Shown here: positions 16,151 to 53,781 of the stretch, piece by piece | Layout: each line of letters opens with the position of its first letter | How positions within the stretch are numbered: the first letter of the stretch is position 1 | NCBI GenBank assembly: GCA_963705105.1 | Contig: CAVPIW010000012.1 | Coordinates: 362,949-426,948 of the forward strand | Direction: 5' to 3' | Length of the DNA: 64,000 bases | Origin: an uncultured Nitrospiraceae bacterium | GTDB lineage: Bacteria; Nitrospirota; Thermodesulfovibrionia; Thermodesulfovibrionales; Dissulfurispiraceae | Notes under the pieces: model-generated | The model's input: only the letters and a program-made list of their open reading frames with translations | Database searches by the model: none | What the model was told of the DNA's origin: nothing | Made by a program: the position numbers and the translations under genes

Positions 16151-16157
16151 GGTCGAT

Positions 16158-23815: not shown

Positions 23816-23825
23816 GGTTTTCCGC

Positions 23826-24939: not shown

Positions 24940-24943
24940 TGTC

Positions 24944-26305: not shown

Positions 26306-26319
26306 CAGTTAAACCTTCT

Positions 26320-26524: not shown

Positions 26525-26547
26525 TTACTTTGCGAAGAAATCATGCC

Positions 26548-27582: not shown

Positions 27583-27588
27583 AGAGGA

Positions 27589-29597: not shown

Positions 29598-30439
29598 AGA
29601 AGATCGGCGAAGGACCGTTCGGTTTTCCTGAAGTACGCCACGCCGGTAACGAGCAGAATCACGACAATCAGGAGCGAAAGGATGAAACCGGGAAGGAATA
29701 TCCTGCTCTCCCCTCCCAGGACGGCCCAGCGGAAACCGTCGATGACACCGACCATGGGATTCAGGGAATAGATCAGACGCCATGAATCGGGGACGACGCT
29801 GCTCGAGAAGCCGACTGGCGAGATATAGAGCCCCAGTTGGACAATGAAAGGGATGACATACCGGAAATCGCGGTATCTCACGTTAAGGGCCGTGAGCCAG
29901 AGGCCTGCCCCCAGGGCCGCGGCAAAGGCGATCCCGACGAAGACCGGCAGTGTGACGACGCGCCAGCCGGGGACGAACTGGTACCAGATCATGAGGATGA
30001 TGAGGATCGCCCAGGAGACAAGGAAATCCACAAAGCTTGTGATCACCGAACTGACCGGTATGATCAATCGGGGAAAATAGACCTTCGAGATGAGATGCGT
30101 GCTGCCGAGAAGACTGTTGGCGGCGTCTGAAAGGGCGTTCGAGAAGAACTGCCAGGGCAGCATGGCGACGAAAACGAGGAGAGGATAAGGGGCTCCCTCG
30201 GAGGGCAGTCCCGCCAACCTTCCGAAAACCACGGTGAAGACGGCCATGGTAAGGAGAGGCCGCACCAGGATCCAGGCGATGCCGATGGCCGTCTGCTTGT
30301 AACGGACCAGGATGTCACGCCAGGTGAGGAAGCAGAGCAGCTCCCGGTAGCGCCAGATGTCGGCCCAGTAATGCTTCTCCGGCCTGCCAGCCTCGATGAC
30401 GAGAGTGGTTTCGTCGGCCGTCGATGCCGGATGCACCAT
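29594..30439 (-). CDS. wzm: Polysaccharide ABC transporter permease
   Basis: RDILVRYKQT, KVYFPR, RYRD, LNPM. Confidence 0.92.
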   Translation of the reverse strand: MVHPASTADETTLVIEAGRPEKHYWADIWRYRELLCFLTWRDILVRYKQTAIGIAWILVRPLLTMAVFTVVFGRLAGLPSEGAPYPLLVFVAMLPWQFFSNALSDAANSLLGSTHLISKVYFPRLIIPVSSVITSFVDFLVSWAILIILMIWYQFVPGWRVVTLPVFVGIAFAAALGAGLWLTALNVRYRDFRYVIPFIVQLGLYISPVGFSSSVVPDSWRLIYSLNPMVGVIDGFRWAVLGGESRIFLPGFILSLLIVVILLVTGVAYFRKTERSFADLL

Positions 30440-30587
30440 CTCCGCCACCCCGTCATGACCGGTTTGCACAGGCCACGACGGGAAGCCTCCCGGCGCAGTC
30501 ACCGGGCATCCCGGCACTTCCCCCGTTTTTCCCCTTCCCACTATTTTTTCCCCTCTCTCCCGTGCCTCTGTCCGTTCCGGCCTGATT

Positions 30588-32939: not shown

Positions 32940-32989
32940 GGGGAGTCCACCTCATTGCTGCGTGAAAAGGGAAAACGGTAACACCTGTT

Positions 32990-33175
32990 GTTGCATGAAA
33001 CGGCGGGGCGACGCGCTCTGAAAACAGTGTCAGTGTGAGTGTGAGTGTCAGTGTCGGAAAAGATGTCCAATTCTCCTGACATCGGCTTATGCCTCGTCTT
33101 TCGTTTTGATACAGGTGTCGCCGCAGCAAGGTTTTCGGCGCATACGCCCCACCTTCCGGTCGGGAGTATGCGACA
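32990..33175. repeat. Family A element (hexamer subtype)
   Basis: Matches 1434-1606 and 61424-61616 with a different hexamer count. Confidence 0.88.
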
Positions 33176-33213
33176 GTGTATGCGTCAGTGGCCGTAAAAG
33201 GACATTTCCTGTT

Positions 33214-35412: not shown

Positions 35413-35425
35413 GGGATTGTTCCGA

Positions 35426-36295
35426 TTACCAGAAACTTTCGGGGACGACGATGATGTCGTCAGGTAACACCGGCTCGTCCATTCCCGCTTTTTCGATGAT
35501 CCTCTCCTTTCCCCGGATTTTCCGGATGATTCTGATCCTGCCGGGCGCGGCCTTGTCGGTGAAGCCGCCTGCCATTGTGGCAGCCTTGATCACCGTGGCA
35601 CCCTCTTCATGCTTGTATGCCTCGGGTCTCTTCACCTCGCCGGTGACATAAAAGACCTCCGCCTTGCCGACATACACGCTGTCGCCGTCCATCAGGGGAA
35701 CGTCGGAAGACGTGTCGCCTTCTTCAAGGAGTTTCCTGAGATCGACGGTGATGATGCTGTCTGTTTTGTCTGAATTGACGGACTTCCTTTTGACGATGGC
35801 CCTGTCTCCGGCCTCCTTGGTGAGCCCGCCGGCCTTGGAGAGCAATTCGAGGAGACTGGTGTTTCCGCTGAGCGAGTAGACGCCCGGCCTGGTTATCTGT
35901 CCCATGATGATCGTCTTTTTGCTCCTGTATTCTTCGACGAAGACCGATACGTTCGGGTCCACGATATAGCCGTCCGCGAGATGGTCCGTCACCTTTTGGG
36001 CAATCTGAGACGTCGTCAGTCCCGAGACGTTGACGGCGCCGATGAGTGGCAGATTGATGAGCCCCTCGCCATTGACCCGCGCGACGGTCGTGAGGTCCTG
36101 ATGACCGTACACGGTTATTTTCACGATATCCTCCTTGCCGACGACATAATCCTGGGCGAAGGCGGCGGCGGTCCACGAGAGGAATGCGAGGGAGAAAAGG
36201 AGGATAATCCTGATCGCTGCGGGTACCACTGCGAAGGGAGGGGCGAAGCGGCTCAAAGTCATGCTGACAGTGGCAACAAGGGTAACCGGCTTCAT
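35426..36295 (-). CDS. wza: Polysaccharide export protein (OPX/Wza family, SLBB repeats)
   Basis: YVVGKED, GLINLPLIG, GQITRPG, GEVKRP, AGG motifs. Confidence 0.88.
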   Translation of the reverse strand: MKPVTLVATVSMTLSRFAPPFAVVPAAIRIILLFSLAFLSWTAAAFAQDYVVGKEDIVKITVYGHQDLTTVARVNGEGLINLPLIGAVNVSGLTTSQIAQKVTDHLADGYIVDPNVSVFVEEYRSKKTIIMGQITRPGVYSLSGNTSLLELLSKAGGLTKEAGDRAIVKRKSVNSDKTDSIITVDLRKLLEEGDTSSDVPLMDGDSVYVGKAEVFYVTGEVKRPEAYKHEEGATVIKAATMAGGFTDKAAPGRIRIIRKIRGKERIIEKAGMDEPVLPDDIIVVPESFW

Positions 36296-37840
36296 TCAGA
36301 TCGCCCCCTTGATGTTGAATACGACGGTGTTCGACTGGTAGTCGAAGGCGGGGATATTCGATTTCCTCGTCGCGAAGGCATAGGAGATGCCGGCCTTCAG
36401 CCCTTTCCTGAACCAGTAGTCTATGCCGGCCGATGCCTCGTAATAATTGTCGGTCCTCTTTTCCGTCTTTCCGTCGAAGGTCAGCGGCTGGCCGTATTTC
36501 TGGTTGGTGTACGAGAAGGATGCCCATCCGGTCACCCTGGAGCTCACCATGTGCTGAAAATTGACGACGGCGCCGCGGTCCATCGTATAAAAGGCGGCAG
36601 GGATATTCGTTTCGCTGGTCTGTCCGAAGGCCGTCAATGAAACCGACGCCTTCGGGCTGAACCTGTGCTCGACTTTCGCTTCATAGATGAAATCATTTGT
36701 CGAGAAATCAGCAAAATCCTTCTTCCCCCATCCTGCCTTGACAGCCCCCCTGGTTTTGGCCGTCACATCCCAGTCAAAACCGCCCAGGAGAGCGTGCTCC
36801 CTGCTGTTCGTCACGCTGTTGTCCGTATACTTGATATCGGTAAATGTGTATTGAGTGAAGAGTGCCGTCCTGGGCCACAGCCTGTAAAAGACATAGGCGG
36901 AAAAGAAATTGTCATCACGGTTCAGCCTGTCATTCCTGTCGGCATCGTAGCGGAGCAGGAAATTGGAATAGTCGACACGGAGGCGCAGCCTGCTGCCGGT
37001 GTCGAGAGAAGCCGACAGGTACAGGAGATTCCCTCTGAACCTGTCCACCTCTCCTCCCGAGAGGACCGAGTCCAGCCTCTCGTAAGACCTGCTGAACTCG
37101 TCGTTCAGCGAAAGGGTCAGGCCGAAGGGGAAGCGATAGGCGATTCCGCCGTTCACGTTGTGGGTGACCGTATTGCCGGAAGGGGAAGTCTCCGAGTGCT
37201 GAGGGATGTCCGCCTGGTAGTGCAGGAACGCGCGATAGCGCCTCGTCCCTTCCTCTCCCTCCCTGCCCAGCAACAGTCCTCCGGGGGAGCGAGTCGAGAT
37301 AGGGTCGAGTCCTTTCGGTCTCTGATTGAGACCGGGCAGGGCGAACCATATTTCCGGGGAGAGTATCATGCTGAAGTCGCTCTTCTTGTCCACATTGGTG
37401 TTGAATGCGTTATCCGTATACACTCCCGAGAGTCCGAGGCCGGCATGGACATATCCCGCCTTTCCCGGCAGCAGGTCCTTCCATGTCGCCGGTCTTCCCT
37501 CGGGCTTCACCAGCCCGGGAGGCAGTCCCGCGTCAGTCCGGGCCGCTCCTTTCGGAGATTCTTCATGGACGATCACGAAGACCCCGTAAACCGTTCTGCC
37601 ATCTTCCGTTTCATATGCGCGGACAAGCGTTTCGAACCCGCTGCTCCTGATCTTCTCGGCGAGGTTTTCCGCGTCCTCTCTCACCGCGAGAACGGAGATT
37701 GCGACTTCACTGACGGGTTCCTCGTCGGCCCGTTCCCTTTCGGCAGGCTGGCCTCCCGGGCCCCCCTCATCTCCGGCAAAACATGCCATGGAGAAAAACA
37801 GGGAGAAGACTGTGATAAGGACAAGGAGCCATTGTCGCAT
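36296..37840 (-). CDS. EPS-associated outer-membrane beta-barrel protein with possible N-terminal SPOR-like domain
   Basis: Signal peptide; YTDNAF...SDF...SPE; alternating beta-strand pattern; sits next to wza. Confidence 0.72.
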   Translation of the reverse strand: MRQWLLVLITVFSLFFSMACFAGDEGGPGGQPAERERADEEPVSEVAISVLAVREDAENLAEKIRSSGFETLVRAYETEDGRTVYGVFVIVHEESPKGAARTDAGLPPGLVKPEGRPATWKDLLPGKAGYVHAGLGLSGVYTDNAFNTNVDKKSDFSMILSPEIWFALPGLNQRPKGLDPISTRSPGGLLLGREGEEGTRRYRAFLHYQADIPQHSETSPSGNTVTHNVNGGIAYRFPFGLTLSLNDEFSRSYERLDSVLSGGEVDRFRGNLLYLSASLDTGSRLRLRVDYSNFLLRYDADRNDRLNRDDNFFSAYVFYRLWPRTALFTQYTFTDIKYTDNSVTNSREHALLGGFDWDVTAKTRGAVKAGWGKKDFADFSTNDFIYEAKVEHRFSPKASVSLTAFGQTSETNIPAAFYTMDRGAVVNFQHMVSSRVTGWASFSYTNQKYGQPLTFDGKTEKRTDNYYEASAGIDYWFRKGLKAGISYAFATRKSNIPAFDYQSNTVVFNIKGAI

Positions 37841-37891
37841 TATCGTTCACGATCACTGGTGTCCGAAATAATCTGACACGAGGAGTTCTCG

Positions 37892-39133
37892 TCAAAATCC
37901 GTTCATGTATATATTTCTGTCCAGCCGTTCCTCGTCCGCCGCGGCGAATGTCAGTACCGGCTGAGAGAGCGGGACGGGGCCATCATTCACCGCGGTGCGA
38001 CCGATGCGCGGCGCGTACCCGCCGGCAGGCTCGGCGCCGATCGTCGCGCTTCTCTGCGTATCGTTTGCGCCATGACAGGGACGTCCCCGTCCCGGCAGCC
38101 GCTCAGCCAGGAACGAAAGCCCGAGGTGTGCGACGAAATAGGCGGAGAAGGCCAGGAAGAGGATATGTTCCGGGATCCGGAAGATGACGCCCGCAATGGC
38201 CAGGATACAAAAGATGCACGAGAGCGTGAGGATGACGGCGACGGAACCCTGTGTCCCAAGACCCATCCTGAGAAGGGTGTGATGGATGTGGTTCCTGTCG
38301 GCGTGAAAGGGGTTTCTCCTTGCGGCGATCCTCTTCAGGATGACCGTTAATGCGTCCGTGACGGGTACGGCGAGGACGAGCAGGGGGATAACAGGACGCA
38401 CAACGCCCTGAGCACCCTGCGTGACGGCAATGGATACGAAAGCGGCCGTAAAACCGAGAAAGAGGCTGCCCGTATCTCCCATAAAGAGGCGGGCCGGGTG
38501 CCAGTTGTAGCGGAGAAAACCGATGATGGCGCCGCTCATGGCGACACTCAGCAGCATCAGGGCGGGATGACCGCTCAAGGCTGATATGCAGGCAAATGAG
38601 AGGAATGCGGTCAGGGAGACGCCCCCGGCGAGGCCGTCCATACCGTCCATCATGTTGAATGCGTTTGCGATCCCGACGATGCAGAAAACGGTGACGGGAA
38701 TCGAATAATCATGGAAATCGATGGAGCCGAGGGACAGGAGATCGCCGAAGGTGAAGAGGTATATGCCGCTCCAATACACGATCATGAGGGCCGCCGCCAT
38801 CTCCCCCGCGAGCTTCCACCAATGATTCAGCTCCTTCCAGTCGTCGAGAAAACCGATGATGAGGATCGTGATCATGCCTGCGAGCAGTCCCGCGACGCGG
38901 CTCAGGCCGATGCAGACGGCAACGCTCAGGAAAAAGCCAAGGGCCATCCCGACGCCGCCGACGAAGGGTTTCGATGTCCCGTGCCGCTTCCGGCGGGAAG
39001 GCCGGTCGACGAGACCGCAGCGGACCGCCGCCCGTGAGAGCTGCGGCAGGGACAGGCAGGCGACCGATAGTGCAAGGACAAAGGCCAGGTTCATCAGGGA
39101 CGGTTCGATGACAGCCAGTTCAGTCACTTTCAT
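37892..39133 (-). CDS. wecA: Undecaprenyl-phosphate GlcNAc-1-phosphate transferase (MraY/WecA family)
   Basis: GFLDD, NAFNMMDGMDGL, LFMGDTGS, ADRNHIHH. Confidence 0.88.
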   Translation of the reverse strand: MKVTELAVIEPSLMNLAFVLALSVACLSLPQLSRAAVRCGLVDRPSRRKRHGTSKPFVGGVGMALGFFLSVAVCIGLSRVAGLLAGMITILIIGFLDDWKELNHWWKLAGEMAAALMIVYWSGIYLFTFGDLLSLGSIDFHDYSIPVTVFCIVGIANAFNMMDGMDGLAGGVSLTAFLSFACISALSGHPALMLLSVAMSGAIIGFLRYNWHPARLFMGDTGSLFLGFTAAFVSIAVTQGAQGVVRPVIPLLVLAVPVTDALTVILKRIAARRNPFHADRNHIHHTLLRMGLGTQGSVAVILTLSCIFCILAIAGVIFRIPEHILFLAFSAYFVAHLGLSFLAERLPGRGRPCHGANDTQRSATIGAEPAGGYAPRIGRTAVNDGPVPLSQPVLTFAAADEERLDRNIYMNGF

Positions 39134-40034
39134 CGGACGCTCCTGTCTGCTGCAGAAACTCCCGATTCTTGCAACATCGTCATCGCCGTCTTCTCGCGGG
39201 CCATTCTTTGCGCCATTATTCTCATCAGGAATGCCGGGTTGGAGATGAAGTTCCTTCTCCACAGCCTCCGGGGCTCACCGAGCAGGCGGACCAGCCATTC
39301 CATGCCTATTTTGCAGAAGAGGGGGTGCGGCCTCTTCACGTTGCCCGAATAAAAATCGAACACGGCCCCGACGGCCCCGATGAACTTCACGTTTAATTCT
39401 CCCTGTGCCGGTATATCCATTTTTCCTGTTTCGGCGCCGTCATCCCCACCCAGAGCACATCAGGGGCTGCGCGGTTAATCGCATCCACCATCAGGCCGTT
39501 CTCCCCGTCACTGAACCCGGGAGAGAAGGGGGGGGCATAGACGCCGGCGACACGGATACGGGGAAAGTCGGACCTCATCTTTTGGCAAATCTTCCGGAGG
39601 TTTTCATCGGTGGAACCGAGGAAAAAATACGTGTAATCCCCGCCCTGATTCAATGCGGAACTCAGTCCCTGGAAGATGTCACTCCCAGTCACCCGTTGGC
39701 GGATGACGCCGCCGAGGAGAGCTGAAGCGATGACGACGCCGATGCCGTCAGGCACGGTCAGGGACGCCGCCCTGAGGGCAGCACGGAACAGGGTGTCTGT
39801 TCGGGCGACTTCCAGAGAGTGCGGGTTGGCGCAGACGAAATACCTCCCCGTTTCATTGCTCCGGACCCGGCGGACAATTTCTGCGACACAGTCATCCTTC
39901 GACCCTGTCGATATTGTATATCCGAGGATGTCTTCCGTCGTGATACCGCCTGTGGTGGCGGATCTTTCCTTGTATTTTTTTCCGGTCATATCGTCAGCAC
40001 TGATTTCGTGCATCCTTTCATCCACAATTGGCAT
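39130..40034 (-). CDS. WecB/TagA/CpsF glycosyltransferase split by an apparent -1 frameshift near 39402
   Basis: ANPH, PDGIG, RVTGSD, GMTAPKQEKW in one frame; GAVFDF...KR...GMEWLVRL..EPRRLWRR in the next; one added G gives HRGELNVKF. Confidence 0.87.
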
Positions 40035-40427: not shown

Positions 40428-43400
40428 TCACTTGCCCTTCAGCCGTGTCATGGGATCACCGAAGAGGATCCAGGTTCTTCTGATGTCCTGGTCTGTTGTG
40501 GCCGCCTTGGCTTTCATCGTCGCCTCCCCGAGGGTAATGGCCCGGGTAGTGAAGAGCAGCCGCATCAGCTCCTTGTTCATCAGGAGCTGACCTTCCGGCT
40601 CCGTCAGCCCCGAGGAGGCCCACACCGCGACGGCCCCTCCCTGTGGCGCCGTCAGCAGCGCCTCGGCCAGACTCCGGGTGTACAGGTCATGAAAGGCCCC
40701 GTTCAGGCAGGTCATGGCCACCACAAAGGGCAGACGCGCCCCGTTGATCAGACCGTCTGCATCATCGGAGCTGAGAATACCTCCCCGCCAGAGCCCGACG
40801 GAGCCGTGGCCGATATAGGTGACCAGCGACGGTCCCTGGTCGATGCTGCTGAGGACCTCCTGTCTCGCCTCCCCGTCGCTCTGGAAGCGGCCCCGGAAGA
40901 CCTCGTGAACAGGCATTGAGACGGGCAGCAGTCCCTCGATCTCCCGGGCCGCCGCCTCGAAGTCGAAGCCCTCACGTGTATCGGCCACAAACACGGCCCC
41001 GTTCATCCCGACGGGCCGCTCATGCCACTGGATCTTCGCAACAACGGCTGCAGCTTCCTCTTTGGTTCTCACCGGCAGGCGCCCCACCGCCATCTCCGGC
41101 AACCCGTCGTCGTTGAAATCGGTAAACCAGTCGTCGGAGGCCGTCTCCAGGTATTGGGTGTCGATCAGTTTCGTCGGCACGAGGTCATGCTCGCCGAAGC
41201 CCAGGTAGTTGCGGGGGTCCACGCTGGCGTCTCCCACGAGGAGCACAACACGCGGGGGCCTGCGCCACTGCTTTTTGGCAAGGCTGAGGAACTCCCGGAT
41301 CACCCGGGGGTCGTTCGCTCCGAAGCTGAACTCGTCGTAGAGGTCTTCGACATCAACGAAGGCGACGGAGAGTCCCTGGGACTGTCGCAGTCTCATCAGG
41401 GGCTGCAGGGCATCCCGGAAGTCCCTGTGGGAGATGATGACAAGATCGGCGCCGCTGTTCGGGGACGACCAGGAGGAGGGACTGTTGGCCTTGATCATCA
41501 CGGGCTTGCCGACCTTGTTTCCGGTGAAGGCAAACAGTGTCCGGGTGCCGCTGCCGGGCGTCGTGAAGGTGACGGTATATCCTGTTTCATCGGACCGGGC
41601 AGCCCCGGCGATCTCATACATCAGGTCCGGAGTGGTGATGTCGATGACCCGGATGTCGGCACTGCGGAAGCCGTCAATGGTGACGGGCGCCCCTGCATCG
41701 GCGGTGCATGTCAGGGTGTCGTCATCGGCCCTGTAGGTGCGCTGGTAGGTCAGCCGGACCTGGTCGAGGAGGCTGACGTCGGTTTCTCCGTTTCCTGCCC
41801 TGAGGCTCAGGAGGTTGTCTCCGTCCAGGAGCGATTCCCGAGGGATCGGTATCTGTGCCGTCACATTGGTCTGCCCGTCAAAGACCACCTCTCCCGCTTC
41901 TTCGTCATTGAGCAGGATACTGACCCGGTGCGGGATGGTCGTCACCCCTTGCAGGACGACTTCCAGCAGGGCGTCTCCTTGTGCCGAAGGGGAAGGGGAG
42001 GGGACGTGCAGGAGCCGGTCCACCCCGGAGGGGCCGATGACGGGACCGAAGAAGTTCTCCTTCTCCCCGTTTCTCAGGGCTGCAAAGTAGATCGTCCGGT
42101 CTTTCTTCCGGATCGTGAAGGGGAAACTTCCCGTCACCGGCTGACCTCCCCGGCTTCTCCATGCATGAAGCCGTTTGCCCGTTGTCGATCCTGCCATGAG
42201 CCAGTAGACCTTCCTGTCCGTCCAGGGCGTGTCGGTCCCCGTGCCGTAGAACTCGATCGCATCGAAGGAGGAACGACCGTCCCCGGCGGCAACGAGACGA
42301 AAAGGCTGCTCCCTGCCGTCGGCAAAGAGCTGCAGACCCCGGAGATTCGTGCCCGTACGGAAGCCTGCCGCTGCCAGCTCGGACTGCCCGATGCGGTACC
42401 AGCCCTCATGATCGATGACGATCTTCACCGTCCGGCCGGAGGCGAGGATTTTCTGCATGGTCCTGTCCTCTGCCGATGTTCCCTCCGCCGCTGTGCGGGC
42501 CGTCTTCTCTGCAGGGGCCGGCGTCTTTGCGATCGTCTGCCGGGAGGATAACGGGGTCTTTGTGCTCATCCCGCCGGAGGGCAGGAGGTCTCTGTCCTTC
42601 CTGGGAGAACTCTCAATCCTCTGCCGGAGATCCCGGAGCCGTTCTTCTTCCCTGTATCTGCCGTCCATCTTCATGCCGAAGTCCCTCAGGAAGCCGGGCC
42701 TGACCTTCTCGGGCAGGGGTGTGCCGGATGTGACGATAGGTACGGGGCCGTGCATCGTTGTCCTGCCGTCCAGGTCGATGTCTTCCAGCCAGTAGGCCAC
42801 CTTGCCCGTTTCCCGGGGGATGAGGTCCCACCACTGGTAGGACAGGCCCGCCCCGAGGGGTGTGCCGGCGCCCGCCAGCAGGGCCGAGCCTCCGATGAGC
42901 TCAGGGGTCAGGCGGTAGAGGTGCCCGCCCTCTTCACGGTAGACATGAAAGCCCAGGTTGTCCACTTCATGACCCGTTTTCCACTGCAGATGGACATCAC
43001 CCTCGTGCCCCGTTGCGGTGAAGGAGATGAGCTTGACGGCGGTGGGGGTCGCATACTCATAGGCGCCGATGTCGTAGCCCGTCCCCTGTGGTCTCATGGC
43101 GCCGCGCTGGTCTGTGGCAGGGGCGCCGGTGGCCGTCCCCGCGTCGATGGCGGGACTGCCGGCAAGCAATGCATGTGTCTGGGTCGGTCCGCCGTTGTCT
43201 GCCAGAGCCCCCAGATTGGGGTTGGTGTTGGGCTTGTCGCCGGTGCCTGCGAGGAGGCAGGTGTTTGCACTGTCGATGTTGTAGCCCGCCGAGGTGATCG
43301 TCCCGGAACAATTGCCCCCCGTGTTGCTCGAGACTATCGTGTTCTTCAGAGTCGTTGTACCGGTGGCAGAGTTCAGTATGCCTCCACCAGTCGTGGCGGT

Positions 43401-46400
43401 GTTGGCGTCGATCGTCACATTTGTGAGAGTGAGCGTTTTTTGATTATAGATGCCTCCACCATTGCCGGTGGAGATATTCCCACTGATGGTGACATTGGTA
43501 AGAGTTCCTGCGACAGTCCCGTTGTAGTAAATGCCTCCGCCCCCAGCGCCAGTGTTCCCGCTGATAGTGCTACGAAGCATCGTCAGGGTGCCGGCGGGTT
43601 CGACATCGATCCCTCCCCCCTGCCCAGAGGTCGTGTTGTTTCTGACCGCAACATCGTTTAGGGTCAGAGTCCCCTGGTTGTAGATGCCGCCTCCTCTGCT
43701 CCCACCGGGGTTGCCGTTCTGAATCGTCATGCCTGACAGCGTGACGGTGCCGGTCACTACGTGAAACACCCGGTCGAGGCCGCCGCCGTCGATGATGGTG
43801 ACCTTCGCACCCTCTCCGGTGATGGTCATGCTGGAGCGGATGTCCAGGTCACCCGTGGCGTTGTTGTCTTCGCCCTGCCCTGCGATGCTCAGGGTGTAGG
43901 TGCCTGCCGGCACGACGATCGTCTTGCCCGTCGTCGCGTTGGCCGCAGTAATGCACGCGCGCAGTGACGAGGTTCCCGAGTCGGCTGTGGTGGTGACGGT
44001 GAAGCCGGGACAGGTGCCCGCACCCGCGGTCACCGTGTAGTTCGGCCCGAACTCGGAGGTGTTGTTGCTCGTATCCGTGGCAGTACCGGTGATCTTGTAG
44101 CCCGGCGCCATGCCGATGACCGTCAGACTGCCGCTGAGGTTGCCGTTGGCATCGGCCGTCAGTGAGCCGAGATACGAGCTGCCCCTCGCCGTACCCGCTG
44201 CCGTCGTTGTCGGACCGGAAGATCTCGACCCGTGCGCCTGCAAAAGCGCTCTGCCCCGGTAAGCTCCCCACATATCCCGCCACGGTCAGTGTGGAGCCCG
44301 ATACCGACGCAGAGGTGAAGACAGGATAGTCCATCAACAGGTTGGGTTGGTTAGCGGTCTTCGCACCGTCGTTCACCGTGACGCCGTTGTCGCCCAGGTC
44401 GATGCCGATACTCCAATTACCGTAGATGGCATTGCCAAGAATCGCGTTGCCTACGGTAGCGCTGCCGGCGTTAATGACTACACCCTTCTGGGTGTTCCAC
44501 GCGATGAGGTTCCCGGCCGCCGCCGTCGTCCCGCCGATGGTGTTGTCGTGCGCCCCATTGTCGATGTAGATCCCATAGACGGTATTCGGAATGGAACGGG
44601 TCTTCGTGACATCCGTGCCTATCGCATTTCCGAGAATCTGAGTACCGGTGGCGCCGGAGCCGTACAAGTAGATGCCGTGCCGGCCGCTGCCGCCGATCAG
44701 GTTTCCGGCTCCTGCGGTCGCGCCGCCGATGGTCGTGTTCACGGAACCGTCGATGACGATCCCGTCGGTCCCGTTGGCGATAACCGTATCGCCCGCAGCA
44801 TTCGTTCCGATATAGTTCCCCTGCACCACATTGAGGCTGGAGCTCCCTCCGATGTAGATCCCCTGGTATGTGTTTCCGGCGATCACATTCCGGTCGACTG
44901 CCGAGGTCCCTCCGATCTGGCAACCGTTGGCGCCGCCGATGAGATAGACTCCCTTGGCGCCGTTGCCCGAGGCAGTGGTTCCAGGTGCATTCGTTCCGAT
45001 ATGGTTTCCGGCGATGATATTGTTGTCGCCGCCGCTGACCTGGATCCCGTCACCGGGAAACCGGTTGATGGTGAAACCGCGGATTGCGCTGTTCGATGAC
45101 GTGATCTGCAGGCCGACCGAGCCGGCACCGGCATTCGTACCGTTCAGTTCGATGATTGGGGCACTCGTCCATCCCGGCTGTTTCTGCGCGTTGATGGCCA
45201 TCGTTGTGCTGATCGGTGGGAGTGCCGAGGTGGGGCTGATGGTGGCCACACCGCCGCTGAAGTAGTTGTTGGAGGACCGCAGTCCCGCTGCCGCCGTCCC
45301 GTTGCTGATCATGAACACGGCGTTTTCCTTCACGTCCACCAAACCCGATTGATGCAGCGAGCCGTCGCCCCCCAGAGTATTGGCGTTCGTGATGAACTGA
45401 CGCAGGCTCCCCTGCCCGCTGTCGTTGGTATTAACGATGGTGTCGAAGTTGAAGCCGAAGTCGACGCCGGTCACATTGGACGAGCTGGTAGTGACAGGGG
45501 CAAAGGCATGGGCCTTTCCTGAACCGCTGCCGGAGAAAACACCCGTTGAGCTGTTGAGTACCCAGCCCGACGCCGCATTACCGGCATCCGCCGTGGCCGG
45601 GTCGTGTCCGCCGACGTAGTCGGTTACATCCACGGCACTGCCGCTCGTAGCGTTCGTCCGATAGGTCATCACCGGGGTGGCGGGTCCGCCACGCGACGAG
45701 GTCACGCTGGAGCTCACCACGCGAACTATATAGTTGCCGGCGGCAAGTCCATTGAATGCGTAGTCGCCGTTCGGGCTGTTCGTAGTCGTAGAGGTGATGT
45801 ACGCACCCGTGCTGCCGTTGAACAACTCGACCCGGGCAGTCGGGCGGGCCGAGCCTCCGTTGCCCAAGGCTGTACTCAGGTTCCGTCCTGCCCCGCCTCC
45901 GTAGTTCACGTCCTCGAATACGGTGCCGGAAATCCCCAGCGTTATAACCGTGAAGTTCGGCCCGAACTCCGACGTGTTGGTGCTCCCATCCGTCGCGGTT
46001 CCTGTAATCTTGTCCCCGACATTCAATCCACTGACCGTCAGGGACCCGCTGAAGTTGCCGTTGGCATCCGCGGTAAGGAACCCCAGATAGAGCTGCCCCT
46101 CTCCGTAACCGCTGCCGTCATTGTCGGACCGGAAGATCTCGACGCGGGCGCCTGCAAAGGCACTCTGGTTCGGTGCATTGCCCACGTACCCCGCCACGGT
46201 CAAAGTCGAGCCCGTCAGGCTGGCTGACGTGAAAACGGGGTAGTCCATTAACAGGTTGGGTTGGTTGCTAGTCTTCGCACCGTCGTTTATTGTGACTCCG
46301 TTGTTGCCCAGGTCGATGCCTATGCCGCCATTGCCGTAAATTGCGTTGCCAAGGACCGCGTTCCCAGGGGTAGAGGCTCCCTGGACGATCACCCCCTGTA

Positions 46401-48102
46401 AGCGGTTCCCTGAAACGATATTGCCGGCCCCGGTGGCGGTCCCGCCGATGGTGTTGGAGGCCCCGTTGATCAAGATGCCGTATTGGTTCTCTACGGCTCC
46501 TGTCCGTGCAGCGTTCGTGCCGATGGAGTTGCCTTGAATCATGTTCCCGCTGCTCACGATGTAAATGCCGTACATGATATTCCCGGAGATAGTGTTACCG
46601 GCCCCGGCGATAGTCCCTCCGATCGTGTTGGTCGGACCATTGACCGCAATGCCGTTGCTGTTGGGAATGGCCGCGGTCCCGGCCGCGTTCAGGCCGACAT
46701 AATTGCCGAGGATGACGTTGCCCGTTGAGGATGCACCGTTGATATAGATGCCACTCTGTGACGCAATCCCTCCGATGACGTTGCGGTCGGCCGGCGTCGT
46801 GCCCCCGACTGTATTGTTCGACGAGTTTTCGATCCCCACGCCGCCGAACATCTGAATGGGGGCGGCCGCTGTTCCGGCGGCATTCAGGTTCAGATAGTTC
46901 CCTGCAACCACGCTTCCGCTGCTGCCGTTCAGCTCGACCCCGTACCAGTTCTGAAAGTTGTTGATGACGAAGCCCCGGACAATACTGGCGCCACCGGTGA
47001 TCTTGAGGCCGGAGGCCGTGGACGCATTGGTTCCGTCCAGTTCGATCTCCGGCCCCAGGGTGTTGGTGTTCCCCTGGCTGGTGGTCTGGGTCGTTCCGTC
47101 GATGACGGTGCCGGCGGCGGTGATCGTTGGCAGGGCCGAAGCTGGGCTGATTCGCCACCACGAGTCGCCGCCCGAGCTCTGATTGCCGGGCCCCGGAATG
47201 TTGAATGAAATCGTAGTGCCTGGACTGCCGTTGGCCCTGTTGATGCACTCCCGCAACGACCCGCTGCCGGTATCGGCTGTTGTAGTGACCCTGTTGGCGT
47301 AACAGAGGGATGCGACCTTGATCTCAACGGCAATCCCGCCGATGTGGGAGACAGCGCTCTGGGTGACATTAACGGTGGTGCTCCCCGTCGCTCTCCATTC
47401 CGCTCTAATACTGGTGTTCGGCGTACTGTAGGCGGCCCCTGTGAAGGCGGTATAGCCCGTCCCCGCCGAGATCGATGTGGCGCTGTTCACCATGTTGGAG
47501 AAGCCGCCGGCGGTCGCGTTTGTCGGGTCACCGAGCGCTGCGAGTGATATCGACAGACCTGCAGCAGCCGACGCACTATCTGTTCGACCGGTGACGCTCT
47601 GCACTATCGCACCGGAGCCGTTCGTCCCCGATGTGTCAACACCGCTGAACCGCTCGATCGCCCAGGCGCATCCGGTCTGGCTGGCGCCGAAGCTTATGGT
47701 CACCGCCCCTGCTGTGGGTGCGGCGCCCATTGCCCTGAAAAGAGTGGTTCGTGCTGTGGGTGCCGCTATGGTTCCCCAGGTGACGGTAGCGACCTGGACC
47801 CAGGTCAGGCCATTGCCGGATAGCGTGGGAGTGTCGGGCGTGGTTGCCTTTGTATTTGTAACCCAGGCAAGGACGAGATTGTTGGCCGTTGGTGTGATGG
47901 AAGCGGTCGTGTATGAGGCTTGATTAGTAGTGCTGCCGGCGGCGGCTAAATGCGTTCCGCCGACCGCCGCAAAGCTCGTGGCAGGATAAAGGACCGGAAT
48001 GACGGCCAGAGACAAGAGGAGACAGATTATAGTAACGCTGATCCGCATCCCCGCTCGGAACCGGGAAATCCCACGGGGATGCCATGGAAAATGTTTTTTC
48101 AA
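40428..48102 (-). CDS. Giant secreted beta-helix repeat protein with C-terminal C25 (gingipain-type) cysteine peptidase, ~2,560 aa; apparent +1 frameshift at 44175
   Basis: GGAGG + TTG start, signal peptide ending ATSFA; repeated [12 protein letters not shown] and beta-helix modules; choice-of-anchor-Q-like ([11 protein letters not shown]...DIGAYE); PTAVKLISF domain; C25 motifs LLVGD, VGRLP, YIGHG, MTCLNG, LFGDP. Confidence 0.85.
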
Positions 48103-48501
48103 TGTGCCTCCACGATCGGGGGGACCGCCTGAAAACGTCTGAGCCGTCTCCCTTGGCGCAGGAGGATTCACCCCTCCTTCCTGGAGAATATATCTGTATC
48201 TCATGACGCACCTCCGGCTTTGCATATGTATCCGTATCTATATATCGAGAATACAGCAGGATATCTTTAGTGATTTCGCTCACGGGTTTCGGTTCCGGGC
48301 ATTATCCGCAATAGTTTGTCAGTGCATCGTATGGGAATGAATGGCATTTTCCTTAAACGTCAATAGATTCGAAGCCATATGGAGAGGGGAAGCAACTAAT
48401 GTACCACTGATGTTTGCTGCTGCAAAGGAGCACGCGAAGTTGGTTGAAGGAATTCGGGGACTGAGAAACCTGCGGGTAAGAGGATGAACCGTATTGCGGG
48501 T

Positions 48502-48865: not shown

Positions 48866-48890
48866 TAAGTTGTATTCCAGGGAGGAAGTC

Positions 48891-49139
48891 ATGAAGGTAA
48901 ATGTCATAACGATCGGTAATTCAAAGGGGATCAGAATACCGAAAGCGATACTTGAGCAGTGCGACTTCACCGATCAGGCCGATCTCGAAGTCAGGGACAG
49001 CAAGCTTATCATTGCGCCGGTCAGGAGAAAGCCGCGAGAGGGATGGAGCGAGGCCTTCAAGTCGATGAAAAGGAGGGGAGAAGACAGACTTGTGGTCGAT
49101 GATTCCATTGACTTGGAGATGAAGGGGTGGGAGTGGTAG
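48891..49139 (+). CDS. mazE: AbrB/MazE-type antitoxin
   Basis: IGNSKGIRIPK...PREGW; GGAGG RBS. Confidence 0.9.
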   Translation: MKVNVITIGNSKGIRIPKAILEQCDFTDQADLEVRDSKLIIAPVRRKPREGWSEAFKSMKRRGEDRLVVDDSIDLEMKGWEW

Positions 49140-49140
49140 C

Positions 49141-49455
49141 ATGCAATATCATGTGTACCTGGTAAATCTCGATCCCACGATCGGCCACGAGATAAGGAAA
49201 ACCCGGCCTTGTCTCGTCGTCTCTCCCGACGAGATGAACGAACACCTGAGTACCGTTATTATTGCACCCATGACGACGAAATCCCACAAGTACCCGACGA
49301 GAATCAAGATCCGTTTCAGCGGCAAGGACGGCTGGATTGTCCTGGATCAACTGAGAACGGTTGACCGGAGACGCCTGGTCAAAGAACTGGGTATCATTGA
49401 CGATCAGGCTGTGCGGGAGGTGAAAGAAGTGATCAGGGAGATGCTCGTCGATTAG
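49141..49455 (+). CDS. mazF: PemK/MazF-type toxin
   Basis: LDPTIGHEIRKTRPCLVVS, APMT, DQLRTVD. Confidence 0.92.
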   Translation: MQYHVYLVNLDPTIGHEIRKTRPCLVVSPDEMNEHLSTVIIAPMTTKSHKYPTRIKIRFSGKDGWIVLDQLRTVDRRRLVKELGIIDDQAVREVKEVIREMLVD

Positions 49456-49949
49456 TCCCCTGACACGTTCCTTGCCTTCTGCCGGACCCATCGCCAGGAC
49501 CGGACAGCAGAGCACAGAAGCCCCATGCGGCTCATGAATCCTATCGCGAACCGCTCCATGCCCAGGCCGAGATAAATCCTCCTGCCGTTTCTCTCTATCT
49601 GCCGAACGCAGCCCAACACATCATTCTTCGGGATGAGGCAATCAGGCTCTGAAGCGTTATCTCCTCTTGTGAGATATTGATTCCCCTTCCTGCCGACGAC
49701 CCTGTGGATGATCAGTTTTCCCGTCCGCAGGCATTGAAAAGCGACGAGACGTCCGAAGGCTATTGAGACATCCCCGAGCGGCGAAAGGGTGACGGTGTCA
49801 CCATCCTCCAGGAAAGGTGACATGCTGTGACCTTTCGCGCGGAACTTGCAGCAAGATCCCTTTGCGAGTATATCCCGGAGGAGTTCACTGAGCAGGTCAT
49901 GGCTCATGATGACCGGTGGCGAGGTCATGCTATTGCCACGGTTCTTCAA
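49452..49949 (-). CDS. S24/S26-family peptidase (Ser-His type)
   Basis: GHSMSPFL, IIHRV, TRGDN; no N-terminal TM anchor; GGAGGAG RBS before TTG. Confidence 0.82.
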   Translation of the reverse strand: MKNRGNSMTSPPVIMSHDLLSELLRDILAKGSCCKFRAKGHSMSPFLEDGDTVTLSPLGDVSIAFGRLVAFQCLRTGKLIIHRVVGRKGNQYLTRGDNASEPDCLIPKNDVLGCVRQIERNGRRIYLGLGMERFAIGFMSRMGLLCSAVRSWRWVRQKARNVSGD

Positions 49950-49975
49950 ATTGGCTCCTCCGGCTTTTGTGTGGG

Positions 49976-50362
49976 TGTCATTCCGGCTTGTCCGGAATCC
50001 TTCCGGCGATATCTTCGTAAAGATCCCTCATGGTGGGATTGCTCTGCTTGATGAGCTCGATTTTCTCTTGTCTGCTCATGTTCTTTATTTGCTTTTCCCT
50101 GATAACGGCGCTACGGCCGTTGCCACAGAACTCGAAAAAAACGAGCCTATGTAAGAAATATTTGGCGGTGAAACATTTCGGATTGAGGCGGTTCTTATGC
50201 TCATAGATCCTTCGCACGAGATTATTCGTTACACCGACATAGAGAGTCGGCCTGGCATTGGCCACAATATACACCGCAAAAATCTTCTCCATGGTCCAGC
50301 CTTTAGATCAGAAGGATTCCGGACCGATCCTCGACAATGCGAGGACAAGAGCCGGAATGACA
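49976..50362. mobile_element. REP-flanked GIY-YIG cassette (candidate autonomous element)
   Basis: Left arm tgtcattccggcttgtccggaatcc (49976-50000) and right arm gaaggattccgg...ccggaatgaca (50311-50362) bracket the nuclease gene. Confidence 0.6.
49978..50292 (-). CDS. Small GIY-YIG nuclease
   Basis: AVYIV...[16 protein letters not shown]...FTAKY...REKQIK...NP. Confidence 0.88.
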
Positions 50363-50437
50363 GAAAACAAGGCCTTCATGTCAGCGCATGCACTCCATTT
50401 ACCCACAGGATTCCGTGACAAATCTTCAATTTCAAGC

Positions 50438-51322
50438 CTAAAGATAGCCCCCTGCATCGTCAATGAATGCGACCACCCTCTTGTCCGGCACGAACCTCAG
50501 CTCATGACACGGGACGCTTTCTGCCACGTCCTGGAGAAAACCGAGGGTGAAGGAGAGACCTGCGGGGTCATAAAAGAGGACAAAAGAGCGCGCAAAGAGG
50601 CCGCTTACGGCATCGGCCGTCTGTTGCGGGACGAGTTCGTTTTCCCGTCCGTGCCGCAGGAGATAAATCCCTGTCAAAGGGGTTCTGACGGGTGAGGAAA
50701 GCCTCGCGTCGCCGTGCCAGGGCGTCCCGTACATCCATATCCTGCCGTCCACCTTCCGCAGGACGATCCGGTCATCGCTGAGGACAGTCACTCCCGGTTC
50801 GTCCTGCCAGAGCCCCGCCATTGTTGTCTTACCGTCGCCGGACTGTCCCGTGAAGAGATGTCCCCGCCCCGAGGAATCGATAAGGCCGCAGGCATGGATC
50901 TCGACGCCTCTGCCCAGGGCGAGGTGATTGATCAGGATGAGCTCATCGAGCGGGTATTCCAGCGGATAAACGGGCACGGCCGGATCAAAAGAGGAGCGGT
51001 TGAGCAGGACCTTTCCCCGTGTATAATCCCTGATCATCAGGGCTGCCTTATACGGGACGGGACCGGAGAGGGGTGAGCGGAACAGGAAGAGATACGATTC
51101 ATCATGATCGTAAAGCTGCCATGCCGATCCCGAATCGAAGATCTTCCGGTTGCCCGCATCCAGAATCGTGAGATCATCCCATGCCGTTTCGATGATCACA
51201 TCGGGATCGGGTTCGTGAACGACGAAGTCCCGAAGCGGACCGCCGGCATGCAGTTGCAGGGACGGGTCTGCGCTGATGATCGACAATGTCACATCGGCGA
51301 TACGAATACCTAATTGTTGCAT
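50438..51322 (-). CDS. HPr-kinase-related P-loop protein (putative peptide kinase)
   Basis: IHACG, GQSGDGKTT Walker A, LSDDRIVLR, GTPWHG. Confidence 0.75.
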   Translation of the reverse strand: MQQLGIRIADVTLSIISADPSLQLHAGGPLRDFVVHEPDPDVIIETAWDDLTILDAGNRKIFDSGSAWQLYDHDESYLFLFRSPLSGPVPYKAALMIRDYTRGKVLLNRSSFDPAVPVYPLEYPLDELILINHLALGRGVEIHACGLIDSSGRGHLFTGQSGDGKTTMAGLWQDEPGVTVLSDDRIVLRKVDGRIWMYGTPWHGDARLSSPVRTPLTGIYLLRHGRENELVPQQTADAVSGLFARSFVLFYDPAGLSFTLGFLQDVAESVPCHELRFVPDKRVVAFIDDAGGYL

Positions 51323-51361
51323 AGAACCTTTGGAAAGATGGGGCGAAGATGCCACCATAAC

Positions 51362-51393
51362 AGTCATTAAGTCACTCAGTCATTGAGTCATTC
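51362..51393. repeat. Octamer tandem repeat (AGTCAYTN x4)
   Basis: agtcatta agtcactc agtcattg agtcattc; same unit at 54881. Confidence 0.75.
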
Positions 51394-51420
51394 ATGGATA
51401 GTCGGAACGAACACCCATGC

Positions 51421-51675
51421 GGGAAGGCTGATGTGGTGAAAAGCCTTTCCGCTAAGATACCTTATTCATCACCAGACCACCCTTTGCCGTGTCGATTGAT
51501 ACCAAAAGCCCGTCAGGCAACAGTCGCTGAACACCTTGAGATGTCTCATCATCGCATTGGAAAGGCGTTGAACCATATCTGCCCTCCCGGAAGCAGCGGT
51601 CGTGACACTGACACTGACACTCACACTGTCACTGACACTGTTTTCAGAGCACTTCGTCCCGCCTTTTCATGCAAC
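51421..51675. repeat. Family B element (51421-51588) plus family A half with hexamers (51604-51675)
   Basis: Inverted copy of 8589-8757, then gacactgacact...ccgccttttcatgcaac. Confidence 0.85.
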
Positions 51676-51785
51676 TGCAAGGTATGGAGAGCGTCGGGAA
51701 CTTGTGCGTCGACGTCTCCATGGGCGTCCTGCCTGCTCTTTGCAGACATTCCTTCGCTGATCCGGGGGAGGGTGTCAAGCCTGTC

Positions 51786-51968
51786 TCATGAAGAGATGGT
51801 GACGCAGCTCATGGGTGTCGTGCATTGCGCCTGCAGCGCGCCTGCACTGACGGCGGTCTTGCAGGCCGCGAGCACCGCTTCTTCCGGTCTCAAATGGACC
51901 TGTTTGATTTCAGGTTTCACATAGGGTTTTTTCGGTCTTTTTGCATTCTGTTGATTACTTTCACTCAT
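51786..51968 (-). CDS. Putative RiPP precursor peptide, 60 aa
   Basis: AGGAGG RBS; leader with KKPYVKPEI (YxxP); EEAVL then Ala/Ser/Thr-rich core with Cys36/49/55 and terminal SS; lies between rSAM-SPASM and kinase. Confidence 0.8.
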   Translation of the reverse strand: MSESNQQNAKRPKKPYVKPEIKQVHLRPEEAVLAACKTAVSAGALQAQCTTPMSCVTISS

Positions 51969-52089
51969 CTCTCCTCCTACTCATAAAAAAGCACGGTGAA
52001 GCATCTTAAAGATGTCTCACGCAAAGTCGCAAAGAGCGCAAAGAAAGAAACATCTTCTATCACATATCGGGACGTTCGGGGGACGGCCC

Positions 52090-53208
52090 CTACAAAACAG
52101 CATCTGTTGTTGCACATTCCCTGTGAGGAACGTGCATACCGAGGGTTTCCGCTCTCAGGTGCGCAACCCGGCAGAGAAAGTCGACAGGCTCTTCCTCATC
52201 TCCGTTCTCGATCTCCCCTTGAGCAGGACACATGCCGCACATCGCCTTGAGCCCGCAATCAGTGCACCTGGTCCGTCTCGTTGCTTTTCGCTGCCTTATC
52301 TTGGGGATGAAGTCTTCCCATCCCTCACGAAAGGTCCCGCATCGCAGATCATAACCATCGCCGTTTGAGAGCGCACAGATCCGCAGCATGCCATAGGGAT
52401 CGACGGCAAAGGAATGGATGCCGCCGCCGCAACTGTATAAATCATCGCCCGTTCTGTGAGGATCGACCAAACTGTCGCAGATCTTGCAGAACCTCCGCCA
52501 TTCCGCCATCCTCCTCGGGTCCTGCATGTCGAGATCCACCACCTCCTGCGGAGAAAGTCTCGCAGCGAGAGGGTCCGCAGAACAGTCGATACGGGGGGTG
52601 ATCATGGCGTCAAACCGGAACTCAAGTCCCCATTCCTCTTCGGCAACCTTTTTCATACCCTCCAACTCGTGACTGTTGAGAGTGAGCGCCATGGTCTTGA
52701 GTCTGAGCGGAAGTCCCCGTTCCCCAAGAAGACGAATCCCGCGCACGCATTGTTCGTAAGACCCGACGACACCCGTCACATCGTCATGGGTCTTCGCGTT
52801 GGCGCCGTACAGGGTGATCTCGATCAGGAAAGGGGGCTGCTCGGCGAGATAGTCCGCAATGGCCGGGGTTAGGAGAGTCCCGTTCGTAAAGAGGGTGATG
52901 AGAAATCCTTTTTCCTTCGCATACGCGTAGATGTCCGGGAAATCGTTCCGGACAAAAATCTCACCTCCGGTGTAAAGGAGCCACAGGCAGCCGGCCTCCG
53001 CCATTTCGTCGAGGACGCGACGATGCTCTTCGCAGGTGAGTTCCCCGGACCGGGCCGCTTCATCATCGGCAGGAAGGTTGTTGTAGCAGTGAACACACTG
53101 CAGAGGGCAGCGTCGCGTCAGCTCGATCGTCCCGCTCAGGGGTATCCGCCGGCCCCGGAGCCTCGCATGAAGCTCGCTGCTGAAATCGGAGTATCGACGT
53201 GTCTCCAT
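52090..53208 (-). CDS. Radical SAM/SPASM peptide maturase
   Basis: CPLQCVHC, TGGE, FTNG; SPASM-type CGGG...C...CTDC...CGMCPA...C. Confidence 0.9.
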   Translation of the reverse strand: METRRYSDFSSELHARLRGRRIPLSGTIELTRRCPLQCVHCYNNLPADDEAARSGELTCEEHRRVLDEMAEAGCLWLLYTGGEIFVRNDFPDIYAYAKEKGFLITLFTNGTLLTPAIADYLAEQPPFLIEITLYGANAKTHDDVTGVVGSYEQCVRGIRLLGERGLPLRLKTMALTLNSHELEGMKKVAEEEWGLEFRFDAMITPRIDCSADPLAARLSPQEVVDLDMQDPRRMAEWRRFCKICDSLVDPHRTGDDLYSCGGGIHSFAVDPYGMLRICALSNGDGYDLRCGTFREGWEDFIPKIRQRKATRRTRCTDCGLKAMCGMCPAQGEIENGDEEEPVDFLCRVAHLRAETLGMHVPHRECATTDAVL

Positions 53209-53215
53209 CCCTTCA

Positions 53216-53476
53216 CCTTATCGCAACATAGGCCCGACCGAAAAGCGGGGTGAATGCGCCGAAAAGCATCGGTGCTGCGAAACCGCTGCCGTCCCGTTGA
53301 GAGCACGGAAGCACAGCTGTCGATGATACAAAGGATGAAATGTTTAAAATCCAAGAATAAATAATCATGCTCGCTATCAGCGAGGCTTTGAGGCGCTTCG
53401 CCCCGCCCTTCGGTGCATCTGCCAAAATGGTCCTCATCATCGCATTGGAAAGGCTTTGACCCCTATCTGCCTTCCC
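53216..53476. repeat. Family A element (53216-53418) plus family B half (53433-53476)
   Basis: aaagcggggtgaatgcgccg...cgccccgcccttc, then ctcatcatcgcattggaaaggctttga. Confidence 0.82.
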
Positions 53477-53484
53477 GGGGGCGT

Positions 53485-53781
53485 TCAGTCTCCGCAACGA
53501 CTGACAAGACCCGCCCGCTCCAGGACGTCCAGGAAATGGATCGTATCGTTCGCGGCATCGTCAGGCGAAACGTCATAGGTGTCACAGACGGCCTCGATGA
53601 TCCCGCCGACCCTGGTCTTCCCGTCAATGAGCTCCCATATGGCGGTGCTCACCTCGTTCAGGGTATAGATGGAATCAAGATCGCCGACACCGCTGCGCAC
53701 AGGAACGATGATCGTCTCGCCGGCAACGCATCGGGTCACCAGGTCTTTCCCTTTCGTGAAACAGTAATCCATAGCGCTCAT
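53485..53781 (-). CDS. PqqD-family RiPP recognition element (RRE)
   Basis: R.VAGETIIVP...IYTLNEV...IWELIDG...YDV...D...FL..L...GLV. Confidence 0.9.
   Translation of the reverse strand: MSAMDYCFTKGKDLVTRCVAGETIIVPVRSGVGDLDSIYTLNEVSTAIWELIDGKTRVGGIIEAVCDTYDVSPDDAANDTIHFLDVLERAGLVSRCGD

Follow-up and report, generated by a model that had tools for sequence, protein, structure and literature searches.

The window analyzed here, a stretch of 64,000 nucleotides from contig CAVPIW010000012.1 of an uncultured Nitrospiraceae bacterium, carries a five-gene cassette for a peptide that is made on the ribosome and modified after translation (RiPP). All five open reading frames (ORFs) are located on the minus strand and are free of internal stops. 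They encode a discrete RiPP recognition element (RRE), a radical SAM-SPASM maturase, a precursor peptide of 60 residues, an HprK-like kinase and an S24/S26 peptidase (Table 1). The initial annotation of this DNA had listed the same co-oriented genes, and we found all of them present and intact, including the strong ribosome-binding site of the precursor gene. It had overlooked three partners in the same window: the gene of a C25 protease, that of a nucleotidyltransferase of family PF14907, and a cluster of polysaccharide genes. The genome holds one copy of the cassette, and a Pfam and NCBIfam scan of its ORFs returned no curated system model above cut-off. We conclude that it is a real and widespread radical SAM variant of the kinase/S26-peptidase RiPP systems, and that it is tied to a PorU-like surface protein. 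The closest characterized system is that of the linear polyphosphorylated peptides (LPPs) of the Bacillota, encoded by lppA-K-B-S-D-N (Popov et al., 2026; PMC13381572).

The loci compared comprised 54 from named genomes, 23 from the phylum of the window and 80 of 261 metagenome loci. A search pattern that fixes only Y-x-x-P, one hydrophobic residue, Leu or Met, and a Cys 20 residues after the Tyr recovered 124 precursors, 108 of them distinct, in 117 of 158 loci, many of the other loci being short contigs. The C-terminal residue is Ser in 104 of the 108 distinct precursors (Thr in 3, Asn in 1), as compared to 3868 of 36018 background frames, and this Ser is encoded by all six Ser codons, from both codon boxes. 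Lys follows directly after the first Cys in 107/108, three Cys residues are present in 106/108, Glu occupies position Tyr+14 in 102/108 and a Gly-Pro motif occurs in 90/108, with the last Cys placed 5 residues from the C-terminus in 92/106. Relative to the leader block of the window peptide, the differences at codon positions 1, 2 and 3 amount to 626, 533 and 1501, respectively, and are thus concentrated at the third position. Judged by these sequences, the precursor peptide is under selection at the protein level. Its matches in the protein Atlas were to unnamed clusters only.

The KKPYVKPEI (YxxP) leader motif and the three Cys residues are as the initial annotation described them, and the conserved peptide beside the maturase and the conserved terminal Ser that it proposed to look for among homologs were both found, in a family of 108 distinct precursors. 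The Cys pattern holds in part: the Cys-Lys pair and the number of Cys residues are kept, but the spacing between the second and third Cys varies from 2 to 8. Two other traits turned out to be peculiarities of the window copy, namely the Ser-Ser C-terminus (1/108) and a core lacking aromatic and acidic residues, which occur after the first Cys in 53/108 and 33/108 precursors, respectively.

After the removal of four duplicate loci, gene neighborhoods were counted within 11 kb in 40 long loci, those with 6 kb or more of sequence to either side, with purpose-built hidden Markov models (HMMs) and with representatives named by Pfam. The precursor and the kinase were each found in 38 of these loci, the RRE and the S24 peptidase in 37, a C25 protein in 30, PF14907 in 20, a polysaccharide gene in 15 and an MsbA-like exporter in 9. 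A C25 gene upstream of the cassette was counted in 15 loci, and one downstream of it in 32. The kinase is fused to S24 in L021, S24 to PF14907 in four loci and S24 to C25 in L003, L100 and L105. An internal segment resembling a signal peptide follows the S24 domain in the S24-C25 fusions, which suggests that the peptidase is left in the cytoplasm and the remainder exported. Furthermore, in a sample of 401 genomes of the phylum, 30 of the 132 genomes in families f1-f18 hold the cassette maturase or kinase; C25 is present in 18 of these 30 (nearby on the same contig in 15) and in none of the 102 others, a comparison in which related genomes are not independent. Here, the kinase profile recovered five cassette genomes that the maturase search at E 1e-80 had overlooked. 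C25 proteins were also found in fifteen more distant genomes, where the kinase is mostly absent. The loci from named genomes belong to Acidobacteriota, Myxococcota, Desulfobacterota, Binatia, Entotheonella and others. The 120 best maturase homologs listed are 59-100% identical, and of the 7998 candidates scored, 5597 were within the 1e-30 limit, a set that may include distant radical SAM enzymes.

The kinase gene follows directly after the precursor gene in 75 of 80 cases, and the motif columns are strongly conserved among 85 kinases (His in 85, Lys in 85, Asp in 84 and Asp in 78). The predicted model, with a predicted local distance difference test score (pLDDT) of 94, matches the folds of PEPCK and HPrK (1knx) at low TM-scores. 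His-Lys-Asp-Asp is described as the catalytic motif of lasso-peptide kinases that act on a C-terminal Ser (PMC9266682). Ser or Thr occurs at any internal precursor position in at most 65/108, and because the last Ser is the only near-invariant hydroxyl residue, we consider Ser60 to be the probable site of (poly)phosphorylation. Conservation on both sides, of the terminal Ser and of the kinase motif, thus supports the C-terminal Ser as the likeliest target, as suggested initially.

The maturase contains C34, C38 and C41 plus seven SPASM cysteines (C260, C278, C315, C318, C324, C327 and C346) that are invariant in 131/131 homologs. By alignment, C260, C278 and C327 are assigned to a three-Cys auxiliary cluster (AuxI/AC1) and C315, C318, C324 and C346 to a four-Cys cluster (AC2). 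A three-Cys AC1 and a four-Cys AC2 are also described for CteB, PapB and Tte1186, in which a substrate Cys binds AC1 (PMC10177961). The CteB-like set fits thioether formation, for which it is necessary and not diagnostic. The initial SPASM thioether claim is in this sense compatible with the conserved cysteines; the bonds themselves we infer. The predicted structure (pLDDT 89) matches SkfB, SuiB, CteB and anSME, and a fold search ranked SkfB, MoaA, PqqE, SuiB, BlsE, CteB and anSME close together, with identities of about 20% or lower, without discriminating between their chemistries. PDB matches of the RRE to TbiB1, 9x90 and 9x8z are weak (E 0.013-0.44). An additional C-terminal H-x-x-C-x-x-C motif was observed in about 105 of the 131 maturases, which are close homologs, and is absent from distant members.

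The peptidase triad, S35-H75-D96 when numbered from the ATG, falls in conserved columns and matches, by eye, S29/H68/D93 of LppS. No hydrophobic segment was found in the protein (maximal 19-residue Kyte-Doolittle mean 1.3), in agreement with the proposal of a soluble enzyme; its match to TIGR02228 (6.9e-10) is below cut-off. Deletion and in vitro experiments have shown LppS to be a leader peptidase that depends on an RRE (PMC13381572), and it is a direct precedent for the leader-cleaving role assigned to the S24/S26 enzyme. The peptidase of locus L034 matches, by eye, PYP86427.1 in the table of LppS homologs, where it is placed in cluster 3 of the sequence similarity network (SSN) and not in cluster 1 (PMC13381572). 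It is very probable that the peptidase of the window cassette cuts off the leader with the help of the RRE. A predicted complex of RRE, peptidase and leader scored 0.80, as compared to 0.71 for a control in which the peptidase was replaced, a difference that speaks neither for nor against this role.

In the LPP leader, the register is Tyr-16, Phe-3, Glu-2 and Thr-1 (PMC13381572). Counting by eye from Tyr-16 places the cut at E30-A31|V32, with Glu at -2 (102/108) and the first Cys at +5. Two neighboring peptide types, one of the FET type (L003) and one resembling ScmA (L013), likewise have their first Cys at +5 following ‘ET’. Signal peptidases follow a rule of a hydrophobic residue at -3 and a small residue at -1, and an alternative cut, A-V-L-A|A-C-K, fits this rule. 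We have a slight preference for E30-A31|V32 as the predicted site, and A34|A35 is a somewhat less probable candidate. A core starting after EEAVL (P1 = Leu33), as initially predicted, fits neither the LppS register (after EEA) nor the signal-peptidase rule (after AVLA).

The giant C25 gene, whose product is predicted to be secreted, begins 1.2 kb past the peptidase gene and spans roughly 2,600 codons. Its C25 region matches NF033707 (215 versus 420 bits) and NF052324, both below cut-off, and the best match in the PDB is PorU (6za2, 7.8e-13), including part of the N-terminal region. The His/Cys dyad is intact in the window copy and in 42/43 C25 proteins. A one-base frame break is located near 44175, where the repeat offset changes from 1914 to 1915. 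Contigs from three DNA runs were compared: those of the near-identical run X1 do not bridge this position, and one related X2 contig lacks a base at 44176. An error of assembly may account for the break. The C25 proteins of L005, L006, L046 and L149 carry hydrophobic and basic C-terminal tails, which we take to resemble membrane sorting signals; most others end at the C25 domain. We also considered the invariant Lys of the precursor as a gingipain-type C25 site, a reading that is weakened because the Cys-Lys pair persists in three genomes (G199, G308 and G386) without a C25 match. The genome has no other strong PF14907 gene, and this one lies 35 kb from the cassette.

Table 1. Features of the cassette and its surroundings in the window.
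Feature	Position	Strand	Evidence or remark
Discrete RRE (PqqD family), 98 aa	53485..53781	-	PF05402, E 2e-18
Radical SAM-SPASM maturase, 372 aa	52090..53208	-	PF04055, 4e-19
Shine-Dalgarno AGGAGG of precursor gene	51973..51978	-	sequence; 4 nt before peptide ATG
Precursor peptide, 60 aa	51786..51968	-	Y16-x-x-P19 leader, E29-E30-A31, C36-K37, C49, C55, terminal S60
HprK/PEPCK-fold kinase	50438..51367	-	H158-K180-D198-D199; weak HprK_rel_B, 3e-5
GIY-YIG ORF between kinase and peptidase, likely mobile insertion	49978..50292	-	PF01541
Anchorless S24/S26 peptidase	49452..49928 (ATG) or ..49949 (alternative TTG)	-	PF00717, 1.5e-5
MazE/MazF-type toxin-antitoxin pair between peptidase and giant gene	48870..49455	+	PF04014, PF02452
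Giant surface protein, N-terminal part	43849..48225	-	signal-like hydrophobic segment at about residues 62-80, beta-helix repeats
Giant protein, C-terminal part: choice-of-anchor Q and PorU-like C25 peptidase	40428..44273	-	PF01364, 5.5e-81
Co-oriented polysaccharide cluster (Wzc-like, Wza-like, Wzm/Wzt, O-antigen-ligase-like, glycosyltransferases)	14486..40034	-	
PF14907 nucleotidyltransferase (LppN family), far end of polysaccharide cluster	13335..14546	-	PF14907, 5.3e-38

The cassette genes are not contiguous in the window, where the GIY-YIG ORF separates the kinase and peptidase genes and repeats occupy two intergenic gaps. Repeat D8 borders the GIY-YIG ORF, and the gap between kinase and peptidase is about 370 nt shorter in a related contig (X3 record 22). 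Intergenic repeats were observed at 51420-51684, 53240-53480, 48499-48566 and 40199-40440, in addition to CACT/AGTCA microrepeats, and the summed contig depth of some of them in sediment runs is very high. They are likely mobile elements resembling repetitive extragenic palindromic sequences or miniature inverted-repeat transposable elements (REP/MITE-like). A promoter and terminator scan performed no better than chance (4 versus 4.3 and 6 versus 5.8). Upstream, the segment at 57844-61430 contains two-component/GGDEF genes and an OmpA/beta-helix protein with repeats like those of the giant surface protein.

Several related arrangements were also observed. Family f29 has a cassette (L184-L187; G195, G293, G279 and G363) with three radical SAM enzymes, RRE, kinase, PF14907 and S24; its precursors, from four loci, follow EQAIL-x-x-C ... 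DSGPRxS, with a terminal Ser, and with Ser where the present family has Lys. The kinase profile matches in 20 of 75 f29 genomes and C25 in none of the 75. At L003:18594-21092, L100:9244-11978 and L001:9-3153, the main cassette is accompanied by another one, which combines S24, kinase and RRE with a different radical SAM enzyme. In L003 and L100, the peptide of this second cassette contains two Cys, ends in Ser and has a FET motif like that of the LPPs. At L178:10449-11701 (G000:C5:551448-552706), a second kinase-like gene and a PqqD gene of the same genome, without a radical SAM gene, follow an ABC/efflux operon.

We propose that the RRE would bind the YxxP leader and that the maturase would then link core cysteines to carbon as thioethers, of which we lean towards one to three being formed. 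The kinase would phosphorylate the last Ser, and the soluble S26-type peptidase would remove the leader while the peptide is still in the cytoplasm. A nucleotide or a sugar may be attached to the phospho-Ser by the distal PF14907 enzyme. The product probably has its role at the envelope of the cell, with the C25 protein and the polysaccharide genes as partners. All three steps, namely thioether formation guided by the RRE, phosphorylation of the terminal Ser and removal of the leader in the cytoplasm, are read from sequence, and we would give this combination an even chance of being correct. The thioether-bridged, C-terminally phosphorylated peptide of the initial annotation thus stands as the putative product of what conservation shows to be a real RiPP cassette. 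A more speculative hypothesis, which we regard as improbable, is that the thioether-stabilized peptide is a structural linker of the envelope rather than a weapon, with its phospho-Ser joined to capsule or exopolysaccharide via the PF14907 enzyme and the C25 domain ligating the peptide to giant adhesins by transpeptidation. PorU has been proposed to be a sortase-like enzyme (PMC4560394).

A number of observations weigh against the proposed pathway. LppK acts on the internal Ser3 and not on the C-terminus (PMC13381572), and the residue at -3 in the LPP register is Glu or Asp, not the Phe required by LppS. At one locus (L074) the kinase is present and the precursor ends in Asn; at another (L043) the terminal Ser is kept with no kinase within 11 kb. 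The nearest solved maturase folds are only about 12-21% identical and include the non-thioether enzymes SuiB, anSME, PqqE and BlsE, the maturase scores highest with the HMMs for AhbD/NirJ and MftC, in every case far under cut-off, and no acceptor residue at a constant offset from the second or third Cys was found in the precursor family. In the window copy itself, the precursor has Gly-Ala where the family has Gly-Pro, the maturase lacks the second Cys of H-x-x-C-x-x-C (residues 362-368, about 52105-52125), mobile inserts lie within the cassette and no dedicated exporter was found nearby.

As an alternative, the maturase might perform another chemistry, such as oxidative decarboxylation of the C-terminal Ser, epimerization or a C-C link at Lys37, with the cysteines serving as disulfide or metal ligands. 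The best HMM matches, to AhbD (120 bits), NirJ2 and MftC (95 bits), the PDB sequence matches to PqqE and the decarboxylase BlsE, the near-invariant Lys after the first Cys and the variable spacing of the other two would be in line with this. However, the HMM scores reflect the shared radical SAM core, the odd number of cysteines and the SPASM set of 3+4 are in keeping with thioether enzymes, and the related cassettes with three radical SAM enzymes have Ser in place of the Lys. We consider a different chemistry unlikely. Modification of an internal Ser or Thr just after the first Cys, in analogy with LppK, has the LPP precedent and the shared peptidase class in its favor, as well as Thr or Ser at core +7 in 65/108 precursors; but with Ser at core +3 in 1/108 and the last residue being the only near-invariant hydroxyl, we think it very unlikely that the kinase acts there.

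It is also conceivable that the family is functional while the copy in this genome is decaying, as the GIY-YIG and MazEF insertions, the high-copy spacer repeats, the C25 frameshift and the Cys lost from the maturase tail might indicate. Yet the five ORFs and every catalytic motif are intact, distant family members also lack the tail motif, and the frameshift, which no near-identical contig bridges, may be artifactual; decay of this copy seems to us improbable. A further possibility is that the C25 and polysaccharide genes are merely the shared cargo of an island of surface genes and that the peptide is secreted as a signal or antimicrobial in its own right. In 10 of the 40 long loci there is no C25 gene within 11 kb, the f29 cassettes lack C25 altogether and an ABC exporter is found near 9 of the 40. 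Against this, C25 occurs on either side of the cassette, is fused to the peptidase in three loci and is confined to cassette genomes in f1-f18, with the reservation on kinship given above. We find the shared-cargo hypothesis somewhat unlikely.

The cassette joins radical SAM chemistry to a module of kinase, S26 peptidase and nucleotidyltransferase of which the first characterization dates from 2026. With four small enzymes and a substrate of 60 residues, it is directly testable in E. coli. Phosphorylated RiPPs encoded in polysaccharide loci, such as paeninodin and the LPPs, are stated to have an unknown function (PMC13381572), and the tight link to the PorU-like C25 protein offers a concrete partner for probing an envelope role. 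If the envelope-linker hypothesis were true, it would imply RiPP-based surface anchoring, independent of type IX secretion (T9SS), across several uncultured phyla. No description of the present system or of its product was found in the literature searched, which left most subscription journals out of reach.

Compared to known systems, the C25 protein shares the His-Cys dyad with PorU of the T9SS, its best PDB match, but is fused to large adhesin-like domains, and most such proteins end directly after the C25 domain. Three T9SS markers were not found in this genome, in searches run without a positive control. The maturase shares a Cys-rich substrate with the ranthipeptide and sactipeptide enzymes CteB, PapB, Tte1186 and SkfB, and its SPASM set is of the CteB type; it differs from them in having about 17-20% identity, a separate RRE, no CxxxD acceptor motif, and an added kinase and S26 peptidase. 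Phosphorylated lasso peptides (paeninodin PadeK, ThcoK, SyanK; pseudomycoidin PsmK/PsmN) have the His-Lys-Asp-Asp motif of the kinase, the conserved C-terminal Ser and a nucleotidyltransferase partner in common with the cassette. No macrolactam cyclase or B2 peptidase was found among the cassette ORFs or the recurrent neighbors scanned, the radical SAM enzyme and S26 peptidase being there instead. For the lasso-type tailoring proposed initially, the LPP system, which has the peptidase too, is the better match.

SynChlorMet (TIGR04248-TIGR04252), a bioinformatic definition reportedly originating from Haft's TIGRFAM work, likewise combines PqqD, a radical SAM-SPASM enzyme, a YxxP Cys peptide and the HprK-like ScmC. 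It differs in having two radical SAM enzymes and a precursor with CxxG repeats, where the window cassette has a single radical SAM enzyme. Judged by HMM scores, the window proteins do not belong to this type, to which they were initially likened. The maturase scored 76.8 and 70.8 bits against the ScmE and ScmF models (cut-off 400) and the RRE 32.5 bits against ScmD (cut-off 100), and the ScmA and ScmC models had no match among the window proteins, whereas the positive control at L013, a true cassette with scores of 645, 620, 312 and 135 bits, passed ScmC/D/E/F. A true SynChlorMet cassette with S24, PF14907 and an ABC exporter adjoins the present family at L013:1-8402, with similar cases at L016, L024 and L176, and given its position beside this family in L013, the two are sister systems.

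The LPP system has most in common with the cassette: a discrete RRE, a YxxP leader, an HprK-like kinase, an anchorless peptidase resembling signal peptidase I with the same triad, a PF14907 nucleotidyltransferase (LppN), which in the cassette family is nearby in only 20 of the 40 long loci, and a polysaccharide neighborhood. Peptidases of the present family are listed in the LPP homolog table, in SSN cluster 3 and without an LPP precursor, and the LPP domain matrix includes Radical_SAM and Peptidase_C25 columns (PMC13381572). These proteins are thus contained within the LPP data, where the system is undescribed; the main text of that paper mentions neither radical SAM, SPASM, C25 nor Acidobacteria. 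The LPP precursor motif YxxPxVLxHQxIxFETxxS matches 0/108 cassette precursors, and the conserved Ser of the cassette is C-terminal rather than at core +3. Furthermore, the core gene set of the LPPs has no radical SAM enzyme (PMC13381572). In contrast to the LPPs of the Bacillota, the cassette, in which an exporter is often absent, adds a radical SAM-SPASM enzyme, a core with three Cys residues and a linkage to C25, and it is found in Acidobacteriota, Myxococcota, Desulfobacterota and others.

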